This document shows positions 1,539-50,282 of a DNA stretch of 64,000 bases, piece after piece. The notes under the pieces were generated by a model. It had not been told where the DNA came from. It was given only the letters and a program-made list of their open reading frames with translations, and ran no database searches. Numbering within the stretch: position 1 is the stretch's first letter; each line of letters begins with the position of its first letter. Source of the stretch: a bacterium (GTDB lineage: Bacteria > Bdellovibrionota_C > UBA2361 > CALJRW01). Both the position numbers and the translations under genes were made by a program. The stretch is taken from contig JANNBC010000048.1 of the NCBI GenBank assembly GCA_031385045.1, positions 54,321 to 118,320 of the forward strand, in the 5' to 3' direction.

Positions 1539-2249
1539 TCATTTACACAGGTTTTGAGTTGCGTAATTATACACGTAATTAACCACTTCAGTCAACGTTT
1601 GCTGGGAGTTATCGATGATTAGTGCTCCAACTGCTGGAATAGTTGGGGCAACATCCCTGGTAGTATCCCGATGATTCCGCTCTTCAATTTCAATTTTCAA
1701 CTGTTTTTTAAGCAATTCTGGGTCACTTTCTGCGGCATCAGGATTATTTTTTAAAATCTGGTTTAGGCGTCTTTCTACTAAAATCTCTGGAGAACAGGTT
1801 AAAAAAACCTTTAATTCCGCATCTGGAAAGATAATTGTTCCCATATCCCTCCCTTCGGCAATTAGATTCTCCCCAACGAAGGCATTTTTCTGCATATCTA
1901 ATAAATAGTCCCGAATTAACTGATGTAGCGCCAAAGAAGATGTCGCCTCGGAAACTTCTGGCTGAAGAGCTGCCATGGTCACATTCTCTCCATTAAGAAT
2001 TAACTTATTATTCAGATCCTCAGTCGGCTCTAATTTAATTTCTGTATTTTTTAAAATCGGCAATAAGTCTTCCGGGCGATCAAAAGAAACCTGATTCTTT
2101 AGTGCTAAGTAACCAACCGCTCGATAAAGTAATCCAGAACTTAAATAACGATAGTCTAACCTCTTAGCCAATTCTCTAGAGACCGCAGTTTTTCCACTTC
2201 CAGCTAGGCCATCAATTGTAATCACAATGCGCGATTGTCGTGTCGACAT
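1539..2249 (-). CDS. cmk: cytidylate kinase
   Basis: P-loop ITIDGLAGSGKT near the N-terminus; length 236 aa; sits upstream of rpsA. Confidence 0.85.
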   Translation of the reverse strand: MSTRQSRIVITIDGLAGSGKTAVSRELAKRLDYRYLSSGLLYRAVGYLALKNQVSFDRPEDLLPILKNTEIKLEPTEDLNNKLILNGENVTMAALQPEVSEATSSLALHQLIRDYLLDMQKNAFVGENLIAEGRDMGTIIFPDAELKVFLTCSPEILVERRLNQILKNNPDAAESDPELLKKQLKIEIEERNHRDTTRDVAPTIPAVGALIIDNSQQTLTEVVNYVYNYATQNLCK

Positions 2250-2289
2250 ATTTTTGGATAATTTTTAAAAGTTAGTCTATATTGGCTCA

Positions 2290-2934
2290 GTGAACAGTAT
2301 AATTCAAGTTTTAAAAGATCAAGGCAAAGGCCGGGCCTTCTGCTTTATTCAAGAAGAAAAGTCCTCCGGCGAATTTTCTCTAGAACAATTAGAAAGTTGT
2401 TTTGTCAGCAACTCGCGAATCCTAGTAATCCAAACACCGATTGTCTCCGATGATAATTGGCTTTTAATTTCAGAGCAGATCCTTAAAACTCTGGAAGAAA
2501 TGGGGATTCGCCAAGTTTCCTTTGTTGGCTTAGGAGCGACAACTAGCCTGTGTCAACATATCGCACTGATCAACAACAAGCTAACCAGATCGCTTGTATT
2601 GATTAATCCAATGACTAGACCAAACCCTACTCGCTTCCAAAAAATTGTAGATCGAGTTGAGAACTTTCTCCCTTTAGGATTACCACTACGTCAGAAAACT
2701 AAAAACTTTGATAGTAAACCATTTTTACAAAGGCTACGTTCTCCTCTTTTAATCTTAACCACCAATGACGTAGATCATTACACTACTCAGGAATCTCAAT
2801 TAATGTTAAAGCGCGTGCCAACATCTTGGCATGTTCAACTTAATAATGAACAACCAGAGAAAAAAGCATCTGACTTAATTAATGAGTTTGAGAATGTTCC
2901 CGTTAAATGTCCACAGAAAAATCTGACAAAATAA
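2290..2934 (+). CDS. hypothetical protein, possibly a degenerate alpha/beta-hydrolase fold
   Basis: 214-aa ORF. There is no clear GxSxG nucleophile elbow; VGLGATTS is the only weak resemblance. Confidence 0.3.
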   Translation: MNSIIQVLKDQGKGRAFCFIQEEKSSGEFSLEQLESCFVSNSRILVIQTPIVSDDNWLLISEQILKTLEEMGIRQVSFVGLGATTSLCQHIALINNKLTRSLVLINPMTRPNPTRFQKIVDRVENFLPLGLPLRQKTKNFDSKPFLQRLRSPLLILTTNDVDHYTTQESQLMLKRVPTSWHVQLNNEQPEKKASDLINEFENVPVKCPQKNLTK

Positions 2935-3125
2935 CTTCGAGTAGCAAAAACCTTAGACTTTATTTTAAACACCGCTCTTGATCCGCTTCTAGAATTCAAC
3001 ATAGCACTTTTACTTAATCAAACTTTTAGGATGGAATAGGAATAGAACTAAATATAGATTTGATTAAAGACTTAAAAAAGATCTGAGATTAAAGATCTAC
3101 AATTATTAATTTTTAGAATTATACA

Positions 3126-11866: not shown

Positions 11867-12252
11867 AAAATTGAACCTTATTAAGATCTATAGTGAGTCC
11901 AAAAAATAAATTACTTTAAAAACTGACGATTTTGTTTGGACTCCCTATTTATGTTGTTTTTAGCTATGCAAACTTGGATATCCACCGCCGCAATTGCTTC
12001 GGCGTGACAAGAATCCAAGATTTGCATTAGCCGTAATGACAGTATTTAATTTACTAACGTAAATTATTTTTTGTCATTACTTTACAATTCAGTAAAGGTT
12101 TTATTAGCTTGATCCTAAAAAATCCTTACCCTTGTTCTCAATATCCTCCAATTTTTGTTGATAACCTAGAAAAATCTTAATTCTATGAATGGTTGTTCTT
12201 TTTTAAAGGAATTAATTGGATTAAGAAAAATTTATGATTTATACACCAAAGA

Positions 12253-12483
12253 TTACTTAATTCGTAAGTCGCAACTCTCATCTATTAAATCATAAATTAT
12301 TTCCGCCTCACCTCTTTCTAGCTGACGAATGACCTGAGAAACTTTTTGATCAAGCGAGTATTCCTCCATTCCATAATCAGTGCCTTCTCTTAAAATAAAA
12401 GACTCAATGACACCTCTTAAGGCTTCAACAGATAATTCTTGATAAGAAACTACGATTAAATTTTTTGATTCATTCTGAGACAT
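12253..12483 (-). CDS. yheU: YheU family protein (UPF0270)
   Basis: 76 aa with the conserved ESFILREGTDYG block, as in E. coli YheU. Confidence 0.65.
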   Translation of the reverse strand: MSQNESKNLIVVSYQELSVEALRGVIESFILREGTDYGMEEYSLDQKVSQVIRQLERGEAEIIYDLIDESCDLRIK

Positions 12484-12485
12484 AG

Positions 12486-30853: not shown

Positions 30854-31778
30854 TTGTTAGGCTGGATTGGTTTTTCTTAAGTCCAAGAAAAACCAATCCA
30901 CCAATTAGAGCTAAAACATAAGATTTAGCCCTAAGTACCAAACCCACCCCTAAGGCTTCTTCTGGTGTCGCCCCTAGTAATGTTAAAAAATAAAAGAAGG
31001 CGCCTTCCTGTATTCCTAAACCATTGGGCGTTAAAGGAATAGCCGAAATTAATAAAACAATCGGTAAGACAACAAACATTTGTAATACTGGAGCATCCCA
31101 CCAACCTACAGCCCAAGCTGCAGCCAAGGTATTCATCACTGTCAAACTATGAAAAAGAAAAGAAATCCCCAGTGTTACAACTAGTAACTTTGGTTGTTTA
31201 AACATTAAACGGACAGCCTCTTGAAAACTAGCAAGCTTTGGAGTGAACTTTTGAAAAAACTTCCAATAAGGAAAAATGATTTGAAAATTAAATTTTAGGG
31301 TAAAAATAATGATAGCACTGAGGACTAGTGAAATAAGTAATAAAATATAAGAAACCTTTGGTGCTAATCCTGTTAACCAAGGCAAAGCTAAAAGTGCCAA
31401 CAAGAGCATGGCAATAAAACCACTTAAACGCTCCATAAAGGTTGCTGCTAAACTTTTAGAGCGAGATTGCTTATCTGTAATTAAAAGACTTCGGGCCAAG
31501 TCTCCGCCGACAAAGGATGGTAACAATAAATTTACAAAGTAACTTAGTAAATAATATCGATAAAGCTTAGCAAGACTAACTGTAATTCCTGTCGAAGCTA
31601 AAAATATTCCCCACTTTAAAGAACTGACGTATATCATAACAAAAGAAATCAGCAGTAAAAACCCAGCTAACCCCCAAGTTATATTTTGAAAAGCACTTAC
31701 TAATTCCGAGAAATCAATAACTAAAAACAAACTTCCAAAAATGATTAATGCAAAAAGTAATTTTAAATATTTAATCAC
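30828..31778 (-). CDS. integral membrane protein, lysylphosphatidylglycerol-synthase TM-region / flippase-like (UPF0104)
   Basis: About 8 TM helices; PSFVGGDLARSLL block. Confidence 0.5.
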   Translation of the reverse strand: MIKYLKLLFALIIFGSLFLVIDFSELVSAFQNITWGLAGFLLLISFVMIYVSSLKWGIFLASTGITVSLAKLYRYYLLSYFVNLLLPSFVGGDLARSLLITDKQSRSKSLAATFMERLSGFIAMLLLALLALPWLTGLAPKVSYILLLISLVLSAIIIFTLKFNFQIIFPYWKFFQKFTPKLASFQEAVRLMFKQPKLLVVTLGISFLFHSLTVMNTLAAAWAVGWWDAPVLQMFVVLPIVLLISAIPLTPNGLGIQEGAFFYFLTLLGATPEEALGVGLVLRAKSYVLALIGGLVFLGLKKNQSSLTTSSEELEE

Positions 31779-40017: not shown

Positions 40018-40608
40018 ATGAATTGGCTATTAAACATCTTAAATCAGTTACTCAACCACAAGACTCAGGAAGACACCTGGCATCGTATTTCAACTCCAGT
40101 TCGCCGGATGAATGCTGATGTCCAAATTAAAAACACTATACAGCCTCCAGATTCATACTCAGAACAACTTTTTCAACAAAAAGTATCGATGATTGAGCAA
40201 TCTTTGCGACTTGCTAAAGATCAAGCAAAAAGTATTAATCAAGCTGTACAGAATATTCCAACTCATCCGGAAAGCATTGAAGAAGCTATTAAAGAAATCA
40301 TTAAAAATTGTGATGCCGTGTCTCTAAGTGGGATACAAATATTAGAAGGCGAACCAATTCACCTAAAATATCAACAACAAGAACTGGTTATCCAATTGCC
40401 TTCATGTAGTAAAGAAATTCTTGATTTATCAAGAGATCGGAAGTTTCTACCTAACGTAAATCAAAAAGTGCAGGAATTAAGCTTAGCTATTGATGCCTCC
40501 CTAGAAAATTTACAAAAATTTCTAACCAAAATTGAAACCGGACAACAAAATTATCTTTCTGCTGGCATTGACTTAAAGCTTTTTCAAAGCCAAATAACTG
40601 ATGCCTAA
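40018..40608 (+). CDS. hypothetical cytoplasmic protein
   Basis: 196-aa ORF, helical/charged; no motif. Confidence 0.4.
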   Translation: MNWLLNILNQLLNHKTQEDTWHRISTPVRRMNADVQIKNTIQPPDSYSEQLFQQKVSMIEQSLRLAKDQAKSINQAVQNIPTHPESIEEAIKEIIKNCDAVSLSGIQILEGEPIHLKYQQQELVIQLPSCSKEILDLSRDRKFLPNVNQKVQELSLAIDASLENLQKFLTKIETGQQNYLSAGIDLKLFQSQITDA

Positions 40609-40734
40609 TCTGGCGATGCTTTAACTTAGCACTCACCTAGACAAAAGAGACCCAGTTTGGGAATCTTAGTCATCAATGATACAATACTCCTTAAGTAATG
40701 ATCAATTTGCGATGACAAGTTATTATTGTTAATT

Positions 40735-40960
40735 ATAGTATATACTAAAACCGATTAGGTTTTAGCGAACTGCTAGGAAAAATGCGGATTGCATTTTTAG
40801 TTCATTGGGGTTTTAGTATATTTGTTTTCCCCAGATAAAATGCTTGTAAAATAAGCATTTTAGCCTGAGCAACCCCCTTGGGTCGCTTCAAGCGCTTTGC
40901 GCTTGATATACTAGGCGACTAATTTTAGAACAGTAATTTCTAATGTCGCCTAGTATATCT
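40735..40960. repeat. cluster of five consecutive stem-loops upstream of ffh (possible structured sRNA or a miniature inverted-repeat transposable element (MITE)-like element)
   Basis: Hairpin 1: 40745-40765, ctaaaacc/ggttttag. Hairpin 2: 40778-40798, aaaaatgc/gcattttt. Hairpin 3: 40837-40861, aaaatgctt/aagcatttt. Hairpin 4: 40888-40906, tcaagcgc/gcgcttga. Hairpin 5: 40905-40959, a 15-bp stem gatatactaggcgac/gtcgcctagtatatc with a 25-nt loop. There is also a long-range inverted pair, tatactaaaacc/ggttttagtata. Confidence 0.45.
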
Positions 40961-41028
40961 AAAAAGTAATTGACCTGAAGAGCGTTAAGCCTTTGGTTGG
41001 ACACCATATTTGTTATTTAGCTATTTCA

Positions 41029-42390
41029 ATGTTTCAAAATTTATCTGATAAACTAACTACTGCACTAAAAAGTCTCCGCGGTAAAACTGTAATCTCTGCA
41101 CAGGATCTCGAAGCCACTCTGAAAGAGGTACGCCTTGCTCTCTTAGAAGCTGATGTAAATTATAAAGTTGCTAAAGATTTCTGTGCTGAAATTGCTATTC
41201 TTGCTCAAGGCGAAGAAGTTTTAAAAAGTCTGAAACCAGATCAACAAATTATTAAGATTGTACATGAGCAGCTTAAAATCATGCTTGGTTCAAATGCCAG
41301 TGAGCTTAATATTAAAGTTGCCCCACCAGCAATTATTATGTTGGTTGGTTTACAAGGGTCTGGGAAAACAACAAGTTGCGGCAAATTAGCAATTTACCTT
41401 CGCAAGCAATTAAAGCGTAATCCACTGTTAGTCCCTGCAGACATTTATCGTCCTGCTGCGATTGAACAATTAAAAACTTTAGGCAAACAAATTAATGTTC
41501 CAGTTTACGACACTCAACCAGGACAAAAACCACTACAGATTGCCGAGCTTGCGGTAGAGCAAGCGAGACTAATGGGTCATGACATTGTAATTCTTGATAC
41601 TGCTGGTCGCTTACAAATTGATACAGAGTTAATGCGAGAATTAGGTGACATCCAAGCCTCAATTAAACCCCAAGAAATACTCTTAGTTGCAGATGCCATG
41701 ACGGGGCAAGAAGCTGTAAATGTTGCTCAAGGTTTTAGCGATCAACTGGCACTAACCGGATTAATTCTTACAAAGCTTGATGGTGATGCCCGCGGTGGAG
41801 CAGCATTATCTATGCTAAAAGTAACTGGCCAGCCGATTAAATTTATTGGTTTAGGAGAAAAAATAGATGCTCTAGAAGTCTTTCACCCAGATCGCCTAGC
41901 TTCCAGAATTCTTGGTATGGGTGACATGCTAAGCCTAATTGAAAAAGCATCAGAACAAATTAACATCGAAGATTCTCTTAAGCTACAAAAGAAATTTCAA
42001 AAAAATAGTTTTGATCTAGAGGACTTCCTTTCCCAGTTAAGAATGATGAATAAGATGGGCAGTATTAGCTCACTGATGTCCATGATTCCAGGAATGGATA
42101 AAATGGCTAAAAAAATAGATCCAGAAGCTGCAGAGAAAGAGCTCCGCAAAACAGAAGCGATTATTTTATCAATGACAAAAAAAGAACGGATTAATCCAGA
42201 CATCTTAAACGGTAGTCGTCGAAAAAGAATTGCTAACGGATCGGGGACACAAGTTCAAGACGTAAACCAGCTCTTAAAACAATTCTTAGAAATCAAGAAG
42301 ATGATGAAACAGTTCAACAAGATGGGAATGGGGAATATGATGAAAGCAATGGGCGGGAAAAATCCCCTCAGTATGCTAAAAGGGCTTTAA
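41029..42390 (+). CDS. ffh: signal recognition particle protein Ffh
   Basis: Start re-set to MFQNLSDKLT… (E. coli MFDNLTDRLS…). GTPase G1 GLQGSGKTT, DTAGR, TKLDGD; Met-rich M domain at the C-terminus. Confidence 0.9.
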   Translation: MFQNLSDKLTTALKSLRGKTVISAQDLEATLKEVRLALLEADVNYKVAKDFCAEIAILAQGEEVLKSLKPDQQIIKIVHEQLKIMLGSNASELNIKVAPPAIIMLVGLQGSGKTTSCGKLAIYLRKQLKRNPLLVPADIYRPAAIEQLKTLGKQINVPVYDTQPGQKPLQIAELAVEQARLMGHDIVILDTAGRLQIDTELMRELGDIQASIKPQEILLVADAMTGQEAVNVAQGFSDQLALTGLILTKLDGDARGGAALSMLKVTGQPIKFIGLGEKIDALEVFHPDRLASRILGMGDMLSLIEKASEQINIEDSLKLQKKFQKNSFDLEDFLSQLRMMNKMGSISSLMSMIPGMDKMAKKIDPEAAEKELRKTEAIILSMTKKERINPDILNGSRRKRIANGSGTQVQDVNQLLKQFLEIKKMMKQFNKMGMGNMMKAMGGKNPLSMLKGL

Positions 42391-49355: not shown

Positions 49356-50282
49356 CTACTTTGCGACAAATAAAACTGGGCGATAAGTACCGGGTGGAAA
49401 TTCAGCATTAAGGTTTCCATTTCGATACTGCTCTGAGGCATTCTTGAATGCAAAATAGATCTTGAAGTACCAGTCAACAAACTTAGCCCATCTGACTGAA
49501 CAGATAGAAAGAATCCTAGGTCGTTTTTTATTAAAATTGCTTTGTTTGGTATTTTTTGGCAAGGATCCTGGTTGTTTTTTTAGTAATTTATCGCGCCCTA
49601 CAAAGCCAACTCCATTACTCATTCTGCTTTGTACAATTTCTCTGATTCGCACTTCTAGTTTTTGAATCATCAATTTTTCATACTCATTCTGAGTAAGACT
49701 CTCATACCCAGGCAATCTTTTAAATTTTAATTGAACAGTGTAAGTATAATCTTCAATCCTAACATCATGAGACCATCTTTTCTTCTCATTATAATCTTTC
49801 CATTTCACCACCTTAAACTTTCGTACTATCCCCCTGATTGAATCATAAAAACAATTATACCCGGGATAATCTTTAATATGCCTCACCAATCCATCCTTAA
49901 CCGGCTGTAAGACAGTATAAAAAAAATATTCTTCAATATCATCAGCACCAGGCGTAAACTCATTGGAGTATCTTCTAGCAAAGAGATTACTTCCTGGAAA
50001 TTGACCACAACGTCTACTTACAGCACGAGCAATTGAAGCATTAAGATCTCTCATAAAACTAGCCCGATTGGAATTAGGAAAATGTGCCAGCTCATGATGA
50101 TGATTCCCCTCAATCGCAATAGCATATAGATCTACATTATAGATCTCAGAATACTTAGCAGTGTATGCCAAGATATCCTGTTCTAGCTGAAAATTATTAA
50201 TGAACCATAATTCGGAGTTCCTTGTTCTCGTCGTACAAAAGGAAGCTATTTCTGATGATTCAATTCTAGGATGATAAGACAT
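49356..50282 (-). CDS. HUH Y1 transposase-like protein (IS200/IS605 TnpA / REP-associated tyrosine transposase family) with a C-terminal extension
   Basis: HuH motif AIEGNHHHEL at roughly aa 60; RAYT-like block SFMRDLNASIARAVSRRCG; catalytic-helix motif YFFYTVLQPVKDGLV (Y…Q). 308 aa, of which ~140 form the Y1 domain. No inverted-repeat IS ends are visible. Confidence 0.6.
   Translation of the reverse strand: MSYHPRIESSEIASFCTTRTRNSELWFINNFQLEQDILAYTAKYSEIYNVDLYAIAIEGNHHHELAHFPNSNRASFMRDLNASIARAVSRRCGQFPGSNLFARRYSNEFTPGADDIEEYFFYTVLQPVKDGLVRHIKDYPGYNCFYDSIRGIVRKFKVVKWKDYNEKKRWSHDVRIEDYTYTVQLKFKRLPGYESLTQNEYEKLMIQKLEVRIREIVQSRMSNGVGFVGRDKLLKKQPGSLPKNTKQSNFNKKRPRILSICSVRWAKFVDWYFKIYFAFKNASEQYRNGNLNAEFPPGTYRPVLFVAK

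Follow-up and report, generated by a model that had tools for sequence, protein, structure and literature searches.

The systems described so far that come closest to the locus reported here are short invertible switches upstream of genes, small palindromic elements of the MITE and REPIN type, and orphan trans-encoded small RNA genes. In REPINs the hairpins are preserved during evolution. RecV, which inverts the flagellar switch of C. difficile, is not known to be encoded beside that switch. The switch is 154 bp long and bounded by imperfect inverted repeats, its effect is Rho-mediated and does not come from a promoter in the switch, and RecV also inverts the cwpV switch and two other invertible sequences (PMC7446863).

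Here, we describe a lineage-specific, non-coding and self-contained cassette of 217 bp, located between the hypothetical gene ORF196 and ffh in a stretch of 64,000 nucleotides (the window). It is a previously uncatalogued, conserved and non-random orphan structured cassette, and its notable property is an inversion in place between related genomes. This inversion is the most informative feature of the locus and had not been foreseen by the first-pass annotation, which had pointed to a set of hairpins packed upstream of ffh.

The hairpin cluster upstream of ffh

The ORF196-ffh spacer holds, at 40735-40960, six perfect stems of 8-15 bp and a seventh stem of seven pairs (Table 1), and 72 nt separate the end of the element from the ATG of ffh. 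Every one of the five hairpins with 8-15-bp stems listed in the first-pass annotation was found, all of them perfect. The long-range complementarity that it had noticed was confirmed as a 13-bp pair, and its remark that the hairpins differ and are not tandem REP copies agrees with the stem sequences, which differ from one another. The T-runs that it had seen after two of the hairpins are merely the A/T-rich 3' arms of stems. Folding, which had been proposed there as a check, gave an energy far beyond that of shuffled sequences on both strands (z = -5.9 on the plus and -9.1 on the minus strand for a segment of 301 nt), and in a sliding scan with 220 nt no other stretch of the 64 kb was as extreme as the cluster on either strand (z of about -5).

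Two other structured stretches were seen in the window. The second most structured intergenic one lies at 11880-12100 in the spacer 11867-12485 (z about -4.2 to -4.7) and has several imperfect inverted repeats, its sequence being unrelated to the element upstream of ffh. A perfect 16-bp hairpin (TGGATTGGTTTTTCTT/AAGAAAAACCAATCCA) at 30863-30900, where two convergent ORFs meet or overlap, is probably a bidirectional terminator.

Table 1. Positions of the block, its hairpins and its neighbours in the window
Feature	Position	Strand	Remarks
ORF196, conserved hypothetical gene, left neighbour	40018..40608	+	used to find relatives
P', copy of ffh promoter-like block, AATTTGCGATG...TTGTTAATTATA	40704..40737	+	directly upstream of element
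Left terminal inverted repeat, ATATACTA	40740..40747	+	inversion breakpoint maps here
Module A	40740..40821	-	13-bp long-range stem around hairpin 40778-40798, plus alternative hairpin 40745-40765
Long-range perfect pair, 13 bp	40740-40752/40809-40821		
Conserved block, 217 bp	40741..40957	- (tentative RNA strand)	reverse complement aligns to L081 6696-6909
Perfect stem, 8 bp	40745-40752/40758-40765		
Perfect stem, 8 bp	40778-40785/40791-40798		
Invariant 18-nt stretch, AAAACAAAUAUACUAAAA on minus strand	40811..40828	-	alignment columns 183-200
Hairpin H4, TAAAATGCTT/AAGCATTTTA, 10 bp perfect	40836..40862	-	
Perfect stem, 10 bp	40836-40845/40853-40862		
Hairpin H3, 7 pairs	40868..40887	-	AGCGACC...GGUUGCU on minus strand
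Hairpin H2, TCAAGCGC-TTT-GCGCTTGA, 8 bp	40888..40906	-	
Perfect stem, 8 bp	40888-40895/40899-40906		
Hairpin B	40905..40959	-	outer 15-bp perfect stem, inner 6-bp stem 40925-40930/40938-40943
Perfect stem, 15 bp	40905-40919/40945-40959		
Candidate internal promoter in hairpin B, GCGACA-16-TAAAAT	40922..40949	-	weak, 9/12 match
Right terminal inverted repeat, TAGTATAT	40951..40958	+	
Possible decayed second P copy, TAATTGACCTGAAG	40967..40980	+	by eye against TAATTTGCGATGCTTAAG of L081; z 0, not significant
ffh, right neighbour	41029..42390	+	TIGR00959, 9e-179; start aligned in relatives

The first-pass annotation had also suspected terminal repeats from the recurring half-site tagtatat, and the block is indeed bounded by ATATACTA and TAGTATAT. 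The perfect part of these repeats is 8 bp long, and an imperfect extension covers 19 nt at 74% (40729-40747/40951-40969). Together with 40736-40743, the left repeat makes up a 12-bp perfect palindrome, TAGTATATACTA. The dinucleotide TA at each end of the block (TA/TACTA...TAGTA/TA) fits a TA target duplication and is inseparable from the repeat. Nine copies of TAGTATAT occur in the window against 2.35 expected, and five of the nine are inside the element; a shufflon-like reading of these five was unsupported, as their extended contexts are just the stem sequences.

No conserved ORF, small ORFs included, was found in the block. The Rfam scan that the first-pass annotation had proposed matched no family in Rfam 15 at the gathering score, the matches with E values up to 10 being at chance level, and an SRP RNA beside ffh, 6S RNA and riboswitches were ruled out at both the gathering and the permissive thresholds. 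The idea of a CRISPR or tracrRNA locus, raised by GTTTTAG motifs, was likewise dropped: there is no repeat array, and no cas genes were found among the scanned ORFs.

The block in related genomes

ORF196 matched no Pfam or NCBIfam family, and among 5.8 billion cluster representatives it has only two detectable homologues besides itself. On the contigs of the homologues the gene order M48 peptidase - ORF196 - ffh - ORF119 - rpsP - trmD is kept. The ORF196-ffh spacer measures 393 nt in the sister genome GCA_041740355.1 (L081) and in an independent Logan assembly (L082), and 116 nt in a further relative (L083), where it is empty of the element. The window, L081 and L083 are roughly equidistant from each other (amino-acid identity of 82, 81 and 74% in ORF196 and 94-97% in Ffh, and 46-60% identity at third codon positions). 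In more distant relatives (L085-L087), with Ffh about 70% identical, the spacer is 78-192 nt long or holds another gene, and the hairpin cluster is absent. The gene in question, in L087, encodes 314 aa of unknown function (2063-3007, minus strand) and stands between the ORF196 homologue and ffh, and the spacer therefore takes different insertions in different lineages. The nearest named Ffh matches, 64-67% identical, carry Bdellovibrionota or Oligoflexia names, which gives a rough placement only, and an Ffh-based contig scan returned, among the matches listed, only phyla at 52-58% identity, uninformative for synteny.

In the source record, ffh begins with a TTG at 40993 (465 aa, P0124). This longer call is probably over-extended, because two close relatives begin at an ATG aligned with position 41029 (453 aa). 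A Shine-Dalgarno-like sequence before the ATG of ffh was absent in all three genomes inspected (window, L081 and L083).

Aligned on the same strand, the spacers of the window and L081 scored 9 against a shuffle maximum of 8, which is noise, and the homologue of the block stayed hidden in these "divergent" spacers until the reverse complement was tried. The reverse complement of 40741-40957 aligns end to end with L081 6696-6909, with 153 of 217 positions identical (70.5%) and three one-base gaps. This is the only detectable homologue, and it sits in the same ORF196-ffh spacer in the opposite orientation. The flanking genes and both flanks are collinear between the two genomes, and just the block is flipped. 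The comparison with the ffh upstream region of relatives, which the first-pass annotation had recommended, yielded in this way a homologue that is inverted in L081 and absent in L083.

The breakpoints of the inversion fall within the terminal motif TATACTA/TAGTATA. The termini, TATACTA-N6-ATTAG, are alike at both ends in both genomes, the terminal repeats being diverged or degenerate in L081 (CACACTA against TATACTA). In the left flank, the 12-mer ATTATTGTTAAT is found exactly 7 nt from the block in both genomes, where it abuts opposite block ends, and the same spacing indicates one orthologous site and an inversion in place instead of two insertions. The orientation of L081 across the block is reproduced by L082, and both junctions of the window are reproduced at 100% identity by Logan contigs of its own sample (L084 and L089). 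As the junctions were independently assembled in both genomes, the orientation is not an assembly artefact.

The Logan (k-mer) assembly of the window's own sample (SRR20217212) ends at 40820 and restarts at 40929, which leaves 108 nt (40821-40928) unbridged. Two breaks within 217 bp are unlikely to be a coincidence, because the Logan contigs outside the element are 8-14 kb long and 100% identical to the window. The breaks could result from hairpin-induced coverage loss or from micro-heterogeneity, and since they lie away from the block boundaries they are no direct evidence of whole-block inversion. Their reading as the inversion of a sub-segment was rejected, as the right break (40929) is not at a repeat.

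Since the block has inverted repeats on both sides (perfect over 8 bp, 74% over 19 nt) and occupies one orthologous site in both orientations, it could be a programmed inverton. A site-specific recombinase encoded elsewhere would then flip it, so that within the population either the leader of ffh would change or an RNA gene would switch direction. Its size and its position between promoter and gene resemble the 154-bp flagellar switch of C. difficile, and the two breaks in the k-mer assembly of its own sample would fit as well. We nevertheless consider a programmed inverton quite improbable, as in the assemblies the orientation differs only between species-level lineages, the breaks are off the block boundaries, the terminal repeats are diverged in L081, no tyrosine or serine recombinase was found among the 42 window ORFs scanned, and an OFF state of ffh, an essential gene, is implausible. 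Inside the block there are a weak promoter-like site on the minus strand and a weak terminator-like site, neither of which was found in L081. We likewise give little credence to an active cassette that, by a distant recombinase or through the palindromes at its ends, would turn an RNA gene around within a population together with the leader of ffh, which is essential. In that case, continuing inversion and homogenisation of the arms would have left the perfect stems and the two assembly breaks as their traces. Such flipping within populations, if it occurs, would make the block an inverton whose cargo is an RNA and not a promoter.

Between the window and L081, the identity of the block stands against 49-50% in the immediate flanks and a shuffled baseline of 47%. 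Two other nearby intergenic regions reach 62% with many gaps, and third codon positions of the neighbouring genes 49-55%. Even the unpaired columns of the block are 67% identical compared to about 50% in the flanks, and the invariant stretch of 18 nt comprises a single-stranded linker together with the 5' arm of the module A stem. Circularity in the pairing analysis was avoided by taking the window's own stems (67 pairs) as a strand-neutral reference and by placing the observed substitutions at random. In this comparison of two sequences, 56 of the 67 pairs are still canonical in L081 against 46.1 +/- 2.9 expected (P 0.0007), and seven pairs have changed on both sides and are still Watson-Crick against 2.0 expected (P 0.002). 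RNAalifold, run on the same two sequences, gave 63 pairs with eight compensatory and none broken (-45 kcal/mol) for window(-)/L081(+), and 36 pairs (-25 kcal/mol) for the opposite strand.

The hairpins have been kept to different degrees. In L081, the outer stem of hairpin B has nine Watson-Crick and two G.U pairs and the inner stem six of six Watson-Crick pairs, three pairs of this hairpin being compensatory (16/52 in the outer, 25/39 and 26/38 in the inner stem). Hairpin H2 is conserved with one compensatory pair (C-G to U-A), and module A occurs as a version with a 17-bp stem and two G.U pairs. Least conserved is the stem of hairpin H4, with six Watson-Crick pairs, one G.U pair and three mismatches. 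Hairpin H3 contains the one non-canonical pair of the window, which reads G.U on the minus and A.C on the plus strand. Among wobble-compatible non-Watson-Crick pairs, G.U outnumbers A.C by 10:0 on window(-)/L081(+) (binomial P 0.002). The same A>G/C>T excess is found in the unpaired columns (8:2), and against a null model preserving the observed spectrum of substitutions the excess of G.U is not significant (P 0.21). G.U against A.C was accordingly downgraded as a proof of the transcribed strand, and the strand call (minus in the window, plus in L081) is tentative because the unpaired columns carry the same substitution bias.

The compensatory changes fit RNA hairpins, single-stranded DNA hairpins and symmetric protein sites equally. 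Recent snap-back duplications could also yield perfect stems, and the cluster might on this ground be taken for neutral palindromic debris of local inverted duplications, without function. This is very improbable, as the homologue is nearly gapless and 70.5% identical while the flanks are saturated, and the pairs have been kept and compensated. As far as the sequence comparison tells, the block is under selection in the pair formed by the window and L081.

Possible nature and origin of the block

The block is found on either side of what seems to be the ffh promoter. In L083, one promoter-like block, P (AATTTGCGAT...TTGATATTCATA), precedes ffh by about 30 nt, and in L081 block P is nearly unchanged (z 15) and located downstream of the element. 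In the window, the similarity of P' has a z of 4.9 to block P of L081 and of 2.7 to that of L083. The left flank of L081, as read by eye, is orthologous to P' but damaged by a 4-nt deletion and a changed TTGCGA. The pair P'/P was rejected as a transposon target duplication, since about 35-40 bp far exceeds known duplications and the second copy of the window is statistically unsupported.

Stacked terminators or attenuators of ffh, which the first-pass annotation had put forward, find no support in the relatives, as the block is inverted and upstream of P in L081 and absent in L083. The terminator scan gave one weak site at 40900-40917 and zero at the listed hairpins, none of which combines a G+C-rich stem with a U-tract as in an intrinsic terminator, and in L081 the scan found no terminator-like site. 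A leader or attenuator of ffh was rejected also on the ground that neither orientation nor position is fixed and that the element is missing in L083 and L085-L087. In the window, the likely ffh promoter is separated from its gene by the element, while in L081 the element precedes the promoter, which is hard to reconcile with a dedicated ffh attenuator. As a separate observation, ATATTTGTT occurs at 40818-40826, in the invariant stretch, and again at 41006-41014, 15-23 nt upstream of the ffh ATG. The putative minus-strand RNA of the element could in this way pair over 9 nt with the 5' region of ffh, but the pairing is weaker in L081 and may be due to chance.

A cis function could also be independent of orientation. 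The hairpin cluster would then act in a plus-strand ORF196-ffh transcript as an insulator or terminator, or as a 3' mRNA stabiliser like REP/BIME, and in the window it would also be part of a structured ffh leader of about 290 nt transcribed from P'. ORF196 and ffh are both on the plus strand, the perfect palindromic stems fold on either strand, the G.U pairs of L081 are on the plus strand, which is that of the neighbouring genes, and of the window's promoter-like blocks the better-preserved one precedes the element. Such a role is still unlikely in our view. The inversion gives the plus-strand RNA complementary loops and linkers, yet the unpaired columns are conserved, including the invariant 18-mer. 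In addition, the terminator scan is essentially empty, L083 and the more distant relatives do without the element, and the window's sole non-canonical pair would be A.C on the plus strand.

The first-pass annotation had further considered a MITE-like insertion and proposed a search for other copies. None was found in the 64-kb window by BLAST with word size 7, or in 125 kb (window and related genomes) with covariance model R1. BLAST of the block against plasmids and phages gave no match, a viral scan with the 18-mer gave 16 matches, all of them chance matches in coding sequence, and metagenome pattern scans gave 0 and then 6 matches that share nothing beyond the searched pattern. Three contigs (L108, L110 and L111) carry one family of foldback repeats with the junctions GTTTTAGTATATACTAAAAC, a 16-mer (TAGTATATACTAAAAC) that is also found at the left end of the element; these repeats are probably unrelated to it and were selected by the pattern. 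Two further metagenome contigs (L107 and L109) have few ORFs of 60 aa or more and are eukaryote-like.

A RAYT-like HUH/Y1 protein of 308 aa, IS200-like, is encoded at 49356-50282 on the minus strand, 8.4 kb from the element. It has the motifs HHHE and YTVLQPVKDGLV and matches Pfam Y1_Tnp with an E value of 2e-4 and NCBIfam REP_Tyr_transpos with 5e-9 along the whole profile, neither of which reaches the curated cut-offs. Hairpins of the element's type were not found in the flanks of its gene, where a REP/RAYT pair would have them, and one palindrome repeated in inverted pairs, as in REP, REPIN or BIME sequences, was not seen: the stems of the element differ, and no repeat of them occurs elsewhere in the 125 kb of window and relatives.

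The block could also be a palindromic, non-autonomous mobile element (of the MITE, ERIC, Correia or REPIN type) that landed in the ffh promoter region and was possibly exapted there. A transposase would recognise its hairpins, perhaps in single-stranded DNA if it is an HUH/Y1 enzyme like the RAYT-like protein, and the TAs at the ends would be the target duplication. Several properties of the locus agree with a mobile element: it is a discrete block with terminal inverted repeats compatible with TA duplication, of three relatives at about equal distance from one another two have it and one does not, both orientations occur, a RAYT-like gene is in the window, and conserved hairpins are also known from REPINs. 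However, the single copy in all the searches weakens this reading, and so do the mutually different hairpins and the RAYT-like gene that lacks them in its flanks. The shared left flank (ATTATTGTTAAT and 7 nt) points to one orthologous site inverted in place, and an immobile selfish copy would be expected to decay like the flanks. We therefore regard a mobile element as possible but rather unlikely.

An old block at a single locus, conserved well beyond the neutral level, with its pairing and its unpaired stretches kept and with both its inversion and a shift relative to the ffh promoter tolerated, fits best a self-contained functional non-coding element. Tentatively, and at clearly less than an even chance, we take it to be an orphan, self-contained structured RNA gene that was flipped in situ between its terminal inverted repeats. 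That the block acts as RNA, and not as single-stranded or palindromic DNA, is our inference, and the same holds for the strand, the promoter and the order of events proposed below. Of the structured small RNA suggested in the first-pass annotation, the conserved structure with compensatory changes is upheld, and it is the RNA form itself that we add by inference. With its six perfect stems of 8-15 bp, the element resembles DNA palindromes more than a typical sRNA.

The proposed gene would encode a structured small RNA of about 175-215 nt, consisting of the long 5' hairpin B, two short G+C-rich hairpins, a variable hairpin, the invariant single-stranded A-rich linker and the 3' module A, a domain closed by a stem of 13-17 bp. 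The block may have entered the ffh promoter region in an ancestor and left one promoter-like block on each side (P' and P), and from the arrangement P'-element-P each lineage would have kept one good promoter copy. In one lineage, recombination or template switching between ATATACTA and TAGTATAT would later have turned the block around at its site. In the window, transcription of the RNA would use the minus strand and point away from ffh, possibly starting at the promoter-like site in hairpin B. This site is the only minus-strand promoter-like one in or upstream of the block, and its counterpart in L081 (GCGACA-16-CAAAAT) is below the scan threshold. Its use would leave the 5' arm of hairpin B untranscribed despite the compensatory changes in this hairpin. 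Because the block would work in either orientation and on either side of the functional ffh promoter copy, its function would be independent of ffh.

Should the block prove to be an RNA gene, it would add a novel structured RNA from an uncultured and little-known lineage that, by the names of the Ffh matches, may be Bdellovibrionota-like. The locus would also serve as a natural experiment, in which both orientations at one locus separate an intrinsic function from cis regulation of ffh.

Comparison with known systems

With the flagellar switch of C. difficile and the leader invertons of the fimS type, the element shares a short non-coding block, short imperfect inverted repeats, a position upstream of the first gene and two orientations. 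It is longer than the C. difficile switch (217 bp against 154 bp) and, unlike that switch, has its orientations in different species-level genomes and its repeats perfect over only 8 bp and diverged in L081, a recombinase was not found among the window ORFs scanned, conserved hairpins pack the element and the neighbouring gene is essential.

Like the Correia/NEMIS, ERIC and RUP elements and REPIN/BIME sequences with RAYT, the element is small, intergenic and hairpin-forming and has terminal inverted repeats with a possible TA duplication. As with MITE and REPIN elements, it is present or absent among relatives and occurs in either orientation, and a RAYT-like gene is in the same window. In contrast to these elements, it is a single copy in 125 kb, all its stems differ, the RAYT-like gene is not flanked by it and one orthologous site is occupied. 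Instead of the short target duplication of MITE and REPIN elements, it is flanked by two copies of a promoter-like block of about 35-40 bp.

From orphan trans-encoded small RNA genes the element differs in that its stems are perfect in the window, no strong promoter or Rho-independent terminator was recognised, it has no Rfam match, and it is bounded by inverted repeats and inverted between relatives. It shares with them a length of about 200 nt, an intergenic position without an ORF and a restriction to one lineage, as well as conservation beyond the surrounding spacers and compensatory and wobble changes that keep the stems.
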